Positions 286 to 4,467 of a stretch of DNA of 5,833 nucleotides are shown piece after piece. Every line of letters begins with the position of its first letter. The first letter of the stretch is position 1. The notes under the pieces are model-generated. The model ran no database searches, was not told the DNA's origin, and saw only the letters and a list, made by a program, of their open reading frames with translations. Position numbers and translations under genes: made by a program. The DNA is from Pseudomonas phage Pf3. The stretch is from the sequence record M19377.1; one strand, given 5' to 3'.

Positions 286-314
286 TAAGGGGGCTTCGGC
301 TCCCTTATTCGTTT
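286..314 (+). terminator. Rho-independent terminator downstream of the coat gene.
   Basis: TAAGGGGGC-TTCG-GCTCCCTTA forms a 9-bp GC-rich stem (one G.T wobble) with a TTCG tetraloop (286-307). It is followed by TTCGTTT (308-314). Confidence 0.7.
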
Positions 315-328
315 AGCGGCTAAAATTT
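312..328 (+). promoter_or_regulatory. Copy 1 of a repeated 17-nt element, TTTAGCGGCTAAAATTT. It contains the interrupted palindrome TTTAGC-G-GCTAAA.
   Basis: Exact 17-nt match to 3372-3388. Both copies sit just after a gene stop and 40-70 nt upstream of the next gene (pIII here, pI there). Confidence 0.4.
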
Positions 329-361
329 TTCAATTCACGGGGCTTTTATGGAGATTATGGA

Positions 362-1813: not shown

Positions 1814-2087
1814 ATTACTTGCTCTTGTCATTGGTTATGCATTGTCCAGTTTTGTTTTAAAACTGTTTACTGTGCTTGGTGTTGGTATTTTCACTTATGT
1901 TGGATTAACAGCTTTGGTTGATGGTTTCTTGAATTTGCTTCAACCAATGCTTACTGGCTTGCCTTCTTATATTCTTGATATTCTCGCTATTGCTGGTGTT
2001 CCTGAAGCTCTATCTATTGTGGGTTCTGCTTTGCTAACTCGTGCCTCAATCAATTCTGCTAAAGCCTTTGTGGGAGTCCTGACATGA
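1806..2087 (+). CDS. VI: Minor coat protein pVI analogue, 93 aa, GTG start, overlapping the pIII stop by 8 nt.
   Basis: GTG 1806 preceded by GGGGGTGG (1793-1800). Very hydrophobic 93-aa product with 2-3 predicted TM segments. Sits in the gIII-gVI position. No in-frame ATG until about 1945, so a GTG start is required for the full ORF. Confidence 0.72.
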   Translation: MARLLALVIGYALSSFVLKLFTVLGVGIFTYVGLTALVDGFLNLLQPMLTGLPSYILDILAIAGVPEALSIVGSALLTRASINSAKAFVGVLT

Positions 2088-3376
2088 TCCGTTCAATTAT
2101 TGCTTTGATGTTGTCTTTTGCTCTTGTGCCTTTTGCTTTTGCATCTGATCGACTTACGGTTAAACATCATGAGATTGATATTCGTGTTGCTATTCCTTTG
2201 GTTGCTGACTTTTGTGGTCGGTCTGTTGTTCTTGGGCCATCTATTCAGGGTGTCGTATCTTTAGATTTTGATGATGTTCCTTGCTCTCAAGCGTTTGATC
2301 TTTTGCTTGAGTCTAATCATTTGCTTTCTTCTATGGTGGGTGATGTTCTTGTTATCACTGCTATGGATCAGGTTTTAAATTCTGAACGTAAAGCGGATGA
2401 TTTGAGAACTTTCCGCCGTGATCTTTTTAATGCCAACGATATTGAACGCCGTGTTATCAACATTGTTCATGCTTCGGCTTCTGAGGTTGTTTCACTGTTT
2501 AAAGAATCGTTCATGTCTCTTGATGCTCCAGGTATGTCCATGACTGTTGATGAACGGACTAACAGTGTTTTTGCTGCATTGCCTTCTTCGTTCTTCCCTG
2601 CTCTTGAGTCTGTGATTCAGGCTATTGATGTTCCGGTTCGTCAGGTTGCTATTGAAGCGAATGTGGTTGAGGCTTCCGTGGACTGGTCTAAGCGCCTTGG
2701 CCTTAATTGGGGTGGTGCGTTATCCCTTGGTAATTGGTCTGCTGTTACTGCTGGTGATTTGTCTGTTGCTGCTGGTTCTTCTATCGGATTTGGTTTTTTG
2801 AGTAATACGCTTTCCCTTGATGGTCTTTTTACTGCTATGGAGAATGAAGGCAATGGGCGTGTGGTTTCACGTCCTACCTTGCTGACACTGGATCGCCAAT
2901 CGGCTTCTGTCCTTCGTGGTACTGAATTGCCTTATCAGCAATCTGCGGGTGATGGTGCTACCAGTGTTGCTTTTAAGCATGCCGCCTTGTCGCTTGAGGT
3001 TAAGCCGGTTATCTCTCCTGATAATTCAATTGTTATTGAAGTGCTTGTTTCTCGTGACTCTCCTAATTTTTCAAATGCTATTGATGGTGTTCCGCCTATT
3101 GATACAAACCGCCTTGTAACTACTATTCGTGTTCCTCATGGTCAAACTGTTGTCCTGGGTGGTGTTTATTCAACTATCAATCAGCAAGGTTCTTCCCGTG
3201 TTTCTGGTATTTCACGAATCCCAGGTATTGGCCGTTTGTTCAAAAAGAAAGAACACGTTACTGAACAATATGAATTGCTGATATTTCTTACACCTAGAAT
3301 TCTTGGCCTTGAAGTAGAACCTGAAAAACAATCTTTGGTTTTTGATGAATCGTTTTTCCTTGGTGATCTTTTTTAG
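2084..3376 (+). CDS. IV: Outer-membrane secretin (pIV / GspD-family virion export protein), 430 aa.
   Basis: ATG 2084 overlaps the pVI stop (ATGA) with SD GGGAG 2072-2076. Signal peptide MIRSIIALMLSFALVPFAFA|SD. C-terminal secretin signature ...RVPHGQTVVLGGVYSTINQQGSSRVSGISRIPGIGRLFKKKEHVTEQYELLIFLTPRIL. Confidence 0.88.
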   Translation: MIRSIIALMLSFALVPFAFASDRLTVKHHEIDIRVAIPLVADFCGRSVVLGPSIQGVVSLDFDDVPCSQAFDLLLESNHLLSSMVGDVLVITAMDQVLNSERKADDLRTFRRDLFNANDIERRVINIVHASASEVVSLFKESFMSLDAPGMSMTVDERTNSVFAALPSSFFPALESVIQAIDVPVRQVAIEANVVEASVDWSKRLGLNWGGALSLGNWSAVTAGDLSVAAGSSIGFGFLSNTLSLDGLFTAMENEGNGRVVSRPTLLTLDRQSASVLRGTELPYQQSAGDGATSVAFKHAALSLEVKPVISPDNSIVIEVLVSRDSPNFSNAIDGVPPIDTNRLVTTIRVPHGQTVVLGGVYSTINQQGSSRVSGISRIPGIGRLFKKKEHVTEQYELLIFLTPRILGLEVEPEKQSLVFDESFFLGDLF

Positions 3377-3388
3377 CGGCTAAAATTT
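3372..3388 (+). promoter_or_regulatory. Copy 2 of the 17-nt element TTTAGCGGCTAAAATTT. It overlaps the secretin stop codon (TAG 3374-3376).
   Basis: Exact repeat of 312-328. Here the palindrome extends to TTTTAGC-G-GCTAAAA (3371-3385). Confidence 0.4.
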
Positions 3389-3433
3389 GTTGTATGTTGT
3401 ATGTAGTACGCTACAACATACTACATACTACAA
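3389..3433 (+). repeat. Intergenic dyad-symmetry region built from tandem heptamers. TTGTATG occurs twice (3390-3403) and is opposed by TACAACA TACTACA TACTACA (3412-3432). Candidate origin or packaging-signal-type hairpin, or an operator.
   Basis: 3395-3408 can pair with 3419-3432 (13 bp, one mismatch, 10-nt loop). An alternative register pairs TGTTGTA 3395-3401 with TACAACA 3412-3418. Located between the secretin stop and the pI start. Confidence 0.5.
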
Positions 3434-3448
3434 ATGTAGGGTGGTGTG

Positions 3449-4354
3449 ATGATTACGTTGATAACAGCGGTGCCGGGTTCCGGTAAAACTCTTTACGCTA
3501 TAGGTTTGATTGAGGCTGCCCTTTCCGAAGGGCGGCCAGTTTTCACAAACATAAGTGGGTTGGTTAAGGATAAATTCTCTAATCCTCACCTTTTGTCTGA
3601 TGCGCCTGATGATTGGCGGGACACTCCAGAGGGATCGTTGGTGGTTTATGACGAGGCCCAGCAAGCGCACTTGTACCTTAGCAATGCCCAGCGTGGGCCG
3701 GTCACGGACGAGCGCCTAACGGCAATGGAAACGCACCGGCATACCGGTCATGATCTGGTTTTCATTACCCAGGCTCCCACGTTTGTGCATCATCACATTC
3801 GTAAGCTGGTTGGGCTGCATATCCATCTTTATCGTTCGCGTGGCCTGCAAGCGGCTTCTAAGTACGAATGGAGCCATGTTTGTGATTCACCTAACGACCG
3901 GAAGGAACAACAAAGGGCTGATTTCGTTCTATGGAAGTTCCCGAAAGAACATTTTGCTTTTTACACCAGTGCGGTTATGCACACGCACAAATTCAAGATG
4001 CCTAAGAAGATAGGTGTTCTGTTGGTTTTTGTTGTTCTCGGTCTGGGTGCTGTCGGTTTTAATCTTTATAAGAATTCAGGGCTGGCTTCGATGGCAGAGG
4101 CTACCGCTTCTGTGGCAGAGGCTACCCCTTCTCCCTTGGCGTTAAACGGGGTTAAACCTTCTTCCTTGGCTGCTCCCTATCAGTGGTCTGCTGCGGCTCC
4201 TGCTGTCCCTGTGTCCGGTTGTGTTGCTAACCGTTCAACGAACCGTTGCCAATGCTTTGATGCTTCTGGTGTCGTCCTGGCGATTGAACACGCGGCCTGC
4301 CTTTCTGTTATTAGTTCGCCGCTTCCTCGTCAGCTTTTGAGTACCAGCAAGTGA
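3449..4354 (+). CDS. I: Assembly NTPase, pI / Zot family, 301 aa. The track begins at GTG 3446; the likely start is ATG 3449.
   Basis: SD GGGTGG 3439-3444. Walker A AVPGSGKT (3467-3490). Walker B-like LVVYDEA (3638-3658). A single central TM segment KKIGVLLVFVVLGLGAVGF, followed by an Ala/Pro/Ser-rich periplasmic C-terminal domain with four Cys. This is the Zot/pI topology. Confidence 0.9.
   Translation: MITLITAVPGSGKTLYAIGLIEAALSEGRPVFTNISGLVKDKFSNPHLLSDAPDDWRDTPEGSLVVYDEAQQAHLYLSNAQRGPVTDERLTAMETHRHTGHDLVFITQAPTFVHHHIRKLVGLHIHLYRSRGLQAASKYEWSHVCDSPNDRKEQQRADFVLWKFPKEHFAFYTSAVMHTHKFKMPKKIGVLLVFVVLGLGAVGFNLYKNSGLASMAEATASVAEATPSPLALNGVKPSSLAAPYQWSAAAPAVPVSGCVANRSTNRCQCFDASGVVLAIEHAACLSVISSPLPRQLLSTSK
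3998..4354 (+). CDS. Possible in-frame internal restart product of gene I (pXI analogue, about 118 aa) beginning MPKKIGVLLVFVV...
   Basis: In-frame ATG at 3998-4000 lies immediately before the basic stretch and TM helix. This is the same position as the pXI start within Ff gene I. No convincing SD. Inference only. Confidence 0.2.
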   Translation: MPKKIGVLLVFVVLGLGAVGFNLYKNSGLASMAEATASVAEATPSPLALNGVKPSSLAAPYQWSAAAPAVPVSGCVANRSTNRCQCFDASGVVLAIEHAACLSVISSPLPRQLLSTSK

Positions 4355-4361
4355 TTCCCGA

Positions 4362-4407
4362 AAGCGAGCAAAAGCGGGAGCGGCTTGCCGCCGCTTGCCG
4401 CTCGCTC
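4362..4407 (+). repeat. GC-rich nested inverted and direct repeat in the pI-rep intergenic region. Candidate terminator and/or replication-origin structure.
   Basis: The outer arms AGCGAGC (4363-4369) and GCTCGCT (4399-4405) are inverted repeats. The inner arms GAGCGGC and GCCGCTC are also inverted repeats. GCTTGCCGC occurs as a direct repeat (4384-4392 and 4393-4401). Followed by TCTTGATT. Confidence 0.5.
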
Positions 4408-4467
4408 TTGATTAGTAGTCACATATCGGTACGCTGCCCAAATCGGCATCCTTGGATCAGGTGATTT

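Follow-up and report, generated by a model that had tools for sequence, protein, structure and literature searches.

Two KorB-operator sequences in the filamentous phage Pf3 and candidate ParB-family sites at the corresponding positions of its relatives

Pseudomonas phage Pf3 carries one 17-nt sequence, TTTAGCGGCTAAAATTT, at two places in its genome, both on the + strand and both in front of a gene of the assembly block (pIII and pI), which raises the question of what protein, if any, recognizes it. An initial annotation had taken the repeat for a shared regulatory site of some kind. Here we report that each copy is, by its sequence, an operator for KorB, a protein of the IncP-1 plasmids, and that related phages hold other ParB-type sites in the same positions. 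The window, meaning the whole stretch of 5,833 nt that was analyzed, is the Pf3 genome (M11912/NC_001418; 99.9% identity, with 5 single-nucleotide differences, none of them in or near the 17-mer). The Pf3 record describes a circular genome of 5.8 kb with 9 open reading frames (ORFs), without an integrase among them.

The exact repetition of the 17-mer was confirmed by a scan of the genome, which found no third copy with up to 3 mismatches allowed. It is the longest exact repeat in Pf3, the runner-up being 14 nt. The view that such a repeat is not due to chance was upheld as well: 200 dinucleotide shuffles of the genome gave a mean of 0.03 matches to the 17-mer and never 2, and a 17-nt repeat appeared in none of 500 simulated Markov genomes of order 1, none of 500 of order 2, and 6 of 500 of order 3.

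The 13-bp core of both copies, TTTAGCGGCTAAA, matches the KorB operator (OB) exactly; the consensus of OB is TTTAGC(C/G)GCTAAA (PMC2680271), and recent work on KorB used it in the form ATTTTAGCGGCTAAAAG (PMC11790492). In Pf3, the consensus is found only at the two copies of the 17-mer, against an expectation of 0. As references we scanned the IncP-1 plasmids pBS228 (alpha group, from P. aeruginosa) and R751 (beta group) for OB, and each contained 12 sites, of which 10 were exact and 2 had one mismatch; pQKH54, pMBUI1, pSN0729-62, and pTer331 were compared as further plasmids. The identity extends past the core, since the 17- to 18-mer including its flank is identical to the OB at the trfA promoter of IncP-1 alpha, beta, and gamma plasmids. 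In pBS228 and R751 this site reads ...AAAATTTT, an 18-nt identity to copy 1, and in the gamma-type plasmids pQKH54 and pMBUI1 it reads ...AAAATTTG, with the copy 2 18-mer, TTTAGCGGCTAAAATTTG, identical to the site in these two IncP-1gamma plasmids. The palindrome of copy 2 is 15 bp long (3371-3385, TTTTAGCGGCTAAAA), and this 15-bp form occurs at several plasmid OB sites too.

Pf3 is listed as specific for the IncP-1 pilus and is counted among the plasmid-dependent phages for the Birmingham IncP-1alpha plasmids. IncP-1 plasmids encode KorB, and because Pf3 is specific for IncP-1 pili, KorB is made in every host cell. In the literature (PMC11790492 among the sources), KorB is described as a ParB-family protein for partition and transcriptional repression that works as a cytidine triphosphate (CTP)-dependent sliding clamp, and as a global repressor acting next to promoters and, by sliding, at a distance. 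The shared operator-type site of the initial annotation is thus retained as an exact OB, with the match pointing to the KorB of IncP-1 plasmids as its binder rather than to a phage-encoded or chromosomal protein. That annotation had also known of no described function. The motif has one in plasmid biology, and it is the presence of OB in Pf3, the adjacent KfrA-like repeat, and the exchange of both for PromA-type or chromosomal sites that we did not find in the searchable literature. No published link of Pf3 or any filamentous phage to KorB or parS was found there either; the Pf3 papers of 1985-87, which are older than the definition of OB, lie outside that scope. Longer homology between Pf3 and pBS228 or R751 was not detected beyond OB and the KfrA-type repeat, apart from a few chance-level matches of 15-16 nt (E-values of 0.17-0.66).

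We refer to the two places as slot 1 and slot 2 (Table 1). Copy 1 begins 5 nt past the coat-gene terminator hairpin, while copy 2 does not follow its gene but overlaps it, the left arm of its palindrome including the TAG stop codon (3374-3376) of the secretin gene ORF430. The next gene had been placed 40-70 nt away, which holds for copy 2 (60 nt to the ATG of ORF301, pI, at 3449) and not for copy 1 (33 nt to the ATG of ORF483, pIII, at 362).

Table 1. Positions of the KorB-operator copies and associated features in the Pf3 genome
Feature	Position	Strand	Remarks
17-mer copy 1	312-328		OB core TTTAGCGGCTAAA at 312-324; slot 1, behind the coat-gene terminator
17-mer copy 2	3372-3388		OB core at 3372-3384; slot 2, upstream of pI (ORF301)
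Coat-gene intrinsic terminator hairpin	288-306	+	Left edge of slot 1; 284-332 folds at -16 kcal/mol
Pf3-specific slot 1 cassette	310-338		Only stretch here without homology to sibling phage L052; blastn breakpoints Pf3 309/339, L052 5462/5536
Pf3-specific slot 2 cassette	3377-3438		Right half of OB and repeat resembling the KfrA operator; blastn breakpoints Pf3 3376/3439, L052 2610/2758
Heptamer inverted repeat	3388-3432		TGTTGTA TGTTGTA TGTAGTA CGC TACAACA TACTACA TACTACA; resembles the KfrA operator of IncP-1beta

Copy 2 does not stand alone. The heptamer inverted repeat that adjoins it folds at -17.5 kcal/mol (z-score -4.3) and resembles the KfrA operator (OK) of R751, which was verified by electrophoretic mobility shift assay with the oligonucleotide OK_R751, CTTGCGTAGTGTTGTATGTTGTAGTATGCTACACGCTACAACATACAACC (PMC7821693). 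The Pf3 repeat shares 14-nt exact blocks with the kfrA promoter repeat of R751 and with this oligonucleotide; its alignment to the oligonucleotide spans about 50 nt and includes several mismatches and a single 3-nt gap. When 72,556 plasmids were searched, the kfrA-korB intergenic region of many IncP-1beta plasmids gave the best matches (Pf3 3364-3427, 87.7%, in two pieces); the database E-value of the repeat region was 2e-2 with IncP-1beta plasmids and 1e-5 with those of Psychrobacter. Related repeats lie directly 5' of genes with a KfrA_N domain in pMATVIM-7 and in a Psychrobacter plasmid, making three plasmid groups overall, and the kfrA repeat of IncP-1alpha differs from that of Pf3. The order of elements is also similar. 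R751 has, in the direction of kfrA, OB, a segment with a KorA-operator-like sequence and a -10, OK, the ribosome-binding site (RBS), and the ATG; slot 2 of Pf3 has OB, 3 nt, the OK-like repeat, and then the RBS and ATG of pI. Both thus have the TGTTGTA / TACAACA heptamer inverted repeat just 3' of OB and just 5' of an RBS and start codon, whereas Pf3 is without the 21- to 23-nt segment with the KorA operator and -10, has three heptamers in each arm, and continues into pI instead of kfrA.

We gathered relatives of Pf3 by searches with its pI protein, which has 451 homologues at E <= 1e-30. The closest is L052, a 6022-nt Logan contig (run SRR29457800) with the Pf3 gene order and about 89-91% nucleotide identity, and its proteins are very similar to those of Pf3 (Rep 97.5%, single-stranded DNA-binding protein [ssDBP] 97.4%, secretin 94.9%, pI 85%) except for pIII, which has 49% identity over residues 1-146, cannot be aligned over 147-246, and has 66% identity beyond. 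L052 contains no OB, and its homology to Pf3 breaks exactly at both 17-mer positions. The L052 cassettes that stand in place of those of Pf3 measure 73 nt in slot 1, including a PromA-type palindrome, and 147 nt in slot 2. The palindrome, TTTCGTCATGACGAAA, is present in both slots, perfect in slot 1 and with one mismatch in slot 2, where the TAG stop codon forces the change. In each slot the palindrome is followed by a GGTGACAGAT...TGTCACC hairpin, and slot 2 additionally holds an AT-rich inverted repeat that matches a repeat upstream of PromA kfrA.

TTTCGTCATGACGAAA occurs exactly twice in the PromA-group plasmid pSN0729-62 (10723 and 11678), once within the 3' end of korB/parB and once a short way past the korA-incC-korB operon, behind the DUF192 gene. 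In pTer331, also a PromA plasmid, the same two places (9735 and 10748) hold TTTGGTCATGACCAAA, a variant that covaries symmetrically. Because of these copies at conserved positions and their symmetric covariation, the 16-bp palindrome is probably the ParB/KorB site (parS/OB) of PromA plasmids; we found no description of the L052/PromA palindrome in the literature. The main differences between Pf3 and L052 are the adsorption protein and which plasmid's putative KorB- and KfrA-type sites they hold. Since their proteins, pIII excepted, are 85-97.5% identical and their palindromes completely different, the binder is unlikely to be phage-encoded.

Slot 1 is recognizable in more distant members of the group, where it directly follows the T-run of the homologous terminator and precedes a conserved CAATTCAGG and a small ORF. 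In three other lineages it contains a chromosomal parS: TGTTCCACGTGGAACA, identical to parS2/parS3 of P. aeruginosa, in L032; TGTTCCACGTGAAACA in L056-L059; and TGTTCCATGTGGAACA, a parS with one mismatch, in L055. A perfect parS is also found just 5' of the rep gene in L061. L040, a 4.7-kb relative, has TTTAGCTGCTAAA after pI, and this center variant also occurs in two plasmids with arrays of exact OB; in the IncP-1gamma-like pMBUI1 it is just 5' of traJ. L060, a Pf3-like genome with a pI 78% identical to that of Pf3, has the palindrome TTTTCGCCTAGCGAAAA three times, one per intergenic region, the copies of TTTTCGCCTAGCGAAAATG being at ~1895, ~3885, and ~50, upstream of the small ORF/pIII, pI, and rep; it gave no informative match in a plasmid BLAST search, and its IMG/VR matches were unrelated.

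ParB-type sites thus recur independently in at least 6 lineages, with 1 to 3 copies and in varying intergenic positions. Forty more distant relatives (pI at most 58% identical) were without parS, exact OB, or the other two palindromes, the sole exception being one OB-like site with 1 mismatch in L134. The relatives located in chromosomes, L033-L035, which are apparently prophages, have no OB or parS sites, and 656 kb of unrelated viral contigs gave one parS-like match. Two side observations concern these genomes. L035 (3335; a Halopseudomonas chromosomal locus, apparently a prophage) shares with the marine contigs L043 (842) and L044 (999) a 14-bp palindrome, TCCCCACGTGGGGA, with the CACGTG center typical of parS-like sites. 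L032 (JAVZOA010000069.1, 5.5 kb) was deposited in a metagenome-assembled genome of 'Candidatus Bathyarchaeia archaeon', an assignment that is almost certainly a binning error because of its Pseudomonas-type parS and the 86% identity of its coat protein to that of Pf3.

Lack of conservation in related phages had been named beforehand as an outcome that would speak against a function. The 17-mer itself is indeed not kept in them, being absent from the first relative found (L026) and from the closest sibling, L052. Function is not thereby refuted, because relatives hold other ParB-type sites in identical slots. The 17-mer was also found exactly in 22 other contigs of IMG/VR, none of which is Pf3-like, and these therefore provide no evidence of conservation. 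Many of these copies look coding by their flanks (…ATT TTA GCG GCT AAA ATT…, ILAAKI; ORFs were examined in six contigs).

Several of the contigs found through the 17-mer hold a second OB (L025, L007, L004, and L023, with L019 also listed). L025 (9.6 kb, 33% GC content) has exact OB at 7765 and 8532, one of them intergenic and the other where a gene ends, and encodes a secretin homologue 23% identical to Pf3 ORF430. L007 has two OB 141 bp apart (3162 and 3303) within repeated flanks, and L004 and L023 each have an adjacent pair with 2 nt between. A further exact OB, TTTAGCGGCTAAA, occurs in the IncP-dependent DNA phage PRD1 (NC_001421) at 13416-13428, where about 4e-4 would be expected. It lies inside the spanin gene ORFu and codes for ...SILAAKK...; it is retained in 5 of 6 diverse alphatectiviruses, with one change in PRDavocado, but its whole neighborhood is strongly conserved in any case. 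Mobile elements may harbor KorB-type sites more widely.

How would Pf3 use these sites? Pf3 has a ParB-type palindromic site on an extrachromosomal replicon, being circular, without an integrase, and in possession of OB. We read the copies as candidate KorB loading sites, and we lean towards centromere mimicry as their most likely use, with the phage hitching onto partition of the plasmid. Every host cell contains KorB, which would be expected to occupy both sites on the double-stranded replicative form (RF), and KfrA may bind the operator-like repeat adjoining copy 2. The partner of KorB in IncP-1 partition is the ParA-type ATPase IncC, and the nonintegrating RF would hitch onto this IncC-KorB(-KfrA) segregation machinery and so be inherited in chronic infection. 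As a side effect or second function, KorB could also damp expression of the downstream assembly genes (pIII-pVI-secretin and pI). Placement behind the strongest terminator would, we suggest, shield the loading site from heavy transcription. Partition is ranked first because the sibling swapped both sites in concert, because other lineages have a chromosomal parS in slot 1, because the position and copy number of the sites vary among intergenic regions, and because integrated relatives are without them. That position and copy number vary is more in keeping with a loading site independent of position than with an operator tied to a given promoter.

The proposed arrangement has counterparts in known systems. 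Compared with the OB of IncP-1 plasmids (RK2/RP4/RP1, R751), with which they share the 13-bp palindrome, the trfA-promoter flank, and at copy 2 the 15-bp form, the Pf3 sites differ in lying on a 5.8-kb single-stranded DNA phage without genes for KorB, IncC, or KorA and in having no KorA/TrbA partner operators or recognizable promoter alongside. Functionally, the nearest precedent is SGI1, which carries two mimics of the parS of its IncC helper plasmid and relies on the plasmid ParABS to remain stable (Muranyi et al. 2024, PMC10954446). Like Pf3, SGI1 is a parasite of conjugative plasmids with two orphan copies of a ParB site and no ParAB of its own. The SGI1 sites bind plasmid ParB, stabilize the element, and cause incompatibility, functions that were demonstrated there and are inferred for Pf3; SGI1 is, however, an integrative mobilizable island rather than a virus, and the plasmid family and the site are others. 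In the chromosomal ParABS system, the comparison is with relatives of Pf3 that carry a perfect parS in the homologous slot, whereas Pf3 itself has a plasmid-type site. Lin and Grossman reportedly found in 1998 that an orphan parS stabilizes an unstable plasmid via the host Soj/Spo0J, a mechanism like that proposed for Pf3. The phage-plasmids P1 and N15 are likewise extrachromosomal phage genomes maintained by binding of a ParB-type protein to a centromere, but they have their own ParA and ParB, whereas the genomes of the Pf3 group (4.5-6 kb) encode none and would rely on resident proteins. The Pf3 sites would be a case of helper-centromere or operator mimicry, a known kind, here by a virus.

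Among the other explanations, those that dispense with KorB are readily weighed. The initial annotation had listed a promoter element and an attenuator as possibilities. A sigma-70 scan of Pf3 for -35 and -10 hexamers 16-18 nt apart returned only two sites genome-wide, neither of them near the 17-mer copies, and by eye there is no usable -35 near either copy. Folded as RNA, the palindrome of the 17-mer gives -0.7 and -1.2 kcal/mol (z-scores +0.40 and +0.33), no better than shuffles. A promoter was accordingly rejected on the consensus scan and a terminator or attenuator on the folding, the actual terminator being the coat-gene hairpin. It is true that TAAAAT inside the 17-mer has 5 of the 6 bases of the -10 consensus, that both copies are 5' of genes, and that the palindrome could in principle form a hairpin. 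The trfA-promoter OB of plasmids has an identical TAAAAT, however, and is also without a conserved -35. An operator for a phage protein such as that of ORF71 or the ssDBP belongs here as well; ORF71 has no Pfam match, and a phage-encoded binder is disfavored by the comparison with L052, with its similar proteins and different palindromes. That the 17-mer is a promoter with TAAAAT as -10, a hairpin, or a site for such a phage protein is therefore very unlikely, and we infer that the sites act as protein-binding sites on double-stranded DNA rather than as RNA or single-stranded DNA structures. If KorB is the binder, it might serve regulation primarily, with KorB (and KfrA) repressing or roadblocking toxic assembly genes (pIII-pVI-secretin at slot 1, pI at slot 2), partition being irrelevant and the plasmid circuit tuning morphogenesis. 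The global repression ascribed to KorB in the literature would allow this; both sites are directly 5' of gene blocks, and slot 2 copies the R751 kfrA promoter-operator order in front of pI. In the scanned plasmids, class I sites have the form OB, 4 nt, -35, and both Pf3 copies are followed by the spacer ATTT and then T-rich hexamers. Against this, neither copy has the class I spacing to a detectable sigma-70-like promoter or a partner KorA or TrbA operator, and the R751 segment with the KorA operator and -10 is absent. Operators for KorA (OA), TrbA (OT), and KorC (OC), normally needed for long-range repression by KorB, were not found in Pf3 within 2-3 mismatches of the consensus sequences used. 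Class III OB sites in plasmids are likewise without nearby promoters, and the missing promoter therefore lowers the case for an operator and not that for a KorB site. Site positions vary between relatives, and the relatives with parS in slot 1 would engage chromosomal ParB, which is mainly a segregation factor. We regard regulation as the primary role as possible but rather unlikely.

The sites could also be decoys, with RF copies titrating KorB and so derepressing trfA (replication) or trb (pilus and transfer genes) or disturbing partition, which could spread, amplify, or displace the plasmid. With two perfect OB on each, RF molecules could outnumber the 12 sites of the plasmid, and the parS mimics of SGI1 destabilize their helper plasmid (PMC10954446). 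Against a decoy, korAB is autoregulated (PMC3502259), which buffers titration. Curing of the plasmid would moreover remove the phage receptor, and derepression of a plasmid cannot account for chromosomal parS in relatives; we find a decoy improbable. A neutral relic, left by illegitimate recombination from an IncP-1 plasmid or by chance duplication and now without function, would be in keeping with the resemblance of slot 2 to a shortened IncP-1beta kfrA promoter region and with the mobility of the neighboring secretin gene among relatives. It is hard to reconcile with two perfect palindromes kept in a 5.8-kb genome with very little noncoding DNA, with the concerted replacement of both by another plasmid's sites in L052, with the independent occurrence of ParB-type sites in several lineages and their near absence from the 40 distant relatives, and with the lack of IncP-1 homology beyond these motifs, and we give it hardly any credence. 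Centromere mimicry in turn has several points weighing against it. A multicopy RF may not need active partition. For RK2, Williams et al. reportedly found in 1998 that only OB3 is active as a centromere and that other OB without OB3 form destabilizing complexes, which would suit a decoy. Pf3 was reportedly isolated on the alpha plasmid RP1, yet its OK-like repeat is of the beta type. The close relatives L026, L039, L051, and L049/L050/L053 have no recognizable site; L052, L055, L056, and L060 are single metagenome contigs; and the KorB reading of Pf3 as a whole is drawn from sequence comparison.

Other features of the Pf3 group came to light in the same comparisons. Copy 1 sits 19 nt 5' of ATG 348, the start of a conserved unannotated ORF of 23 codons (348-419, + strand, MEIMEWVYIIYLGFVLPFFLFPR) that overlaps the pIII start in a different frame. 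In the ten relatives where the scan detected it, this ORF is near-invariant, in contrast to the freely varying pIII signal peptide that it overlaps; it probably encodes a genuine small hydrophobic protein of the minor coat or of assembly. The secretin gene ORF430 (2084-3376) is mobile in the group: most relatives are without it and have the pVI stop overlapping the pI ATG; Pf3, L052, and L051 have it between pVI and pI; and L049, L050, and L053 have it after pI, with ~89-90% protein identity to ORF430 and only ~30-60% in other genes, the secretin homology of these relatives to Pf3 stopping exactly at the stop codon. Among cellular proteins, those most similar to it are PilQ-like secretins from Pseudomonas and Stutzerimonas (52%; PilQ 37-40%). 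The pI-rep intergenic region (4355-4467) has a GC-rich hairpin (about 4362-4412) followed by CTTGATTAGTAGTCACATATC, which is near-invariant in L052, L055, L056, and L060 while its flanks vary; this element is probably a replication origin with the Rep nick site or a packaging signal. Inside pI, a 21-nt tandem duplication (4085-4126, GCTTCGATGGCAGAGGCTACC / GCTTCTGTGGCAGAGGCTACC) encodes the repeat ASMAEAT / ASVAEAT within the variable C-terminal region.

Perfect KorB and KfrA-type sites would not be expected by a specialist in a phage sequenced in 1985. Plasmid-dependent phages are thought to need the plasmid for its pilus receptor only. The perfect KorB sites and the KfrA-like site of Pf3 suggest that it also leans on the plasmid inside the cell, and the exchange of these sites for PromA-type or chromosomal ParB sites among its relatives suggests the same. 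More broadly, it is an evenly balanced proposition that the Pf3-group phages are satellites of a resident segregation and control network (the KorB of IncP-1 plasmids, the KorB/ParB of PromA plasmids, or the chromosomal ParB), exchanging cassettes of ParB-family and in some cases KfrA sites together with the receptor-binding part of pIII when they switch plasmids. If so, RF inheritance, assembly-gene expression, or both would be a second plasmid dependence beyond the pilus receptor. This would offer a testable answer to how tiny nonintegrating inoviruses are stably inherited, and it would bring viruses into helper-centromere mimicry, of which SGI1 with IncC plasmids is the case demonstrated to date. 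Such sequence markers may then predict which plasmid an uncultured inovirus exploits. It would also bear on the use of plasmid-dependent phages against resistance plasmids, whose copy number, transfer, or loss could change through KorB titration or incompatibility.

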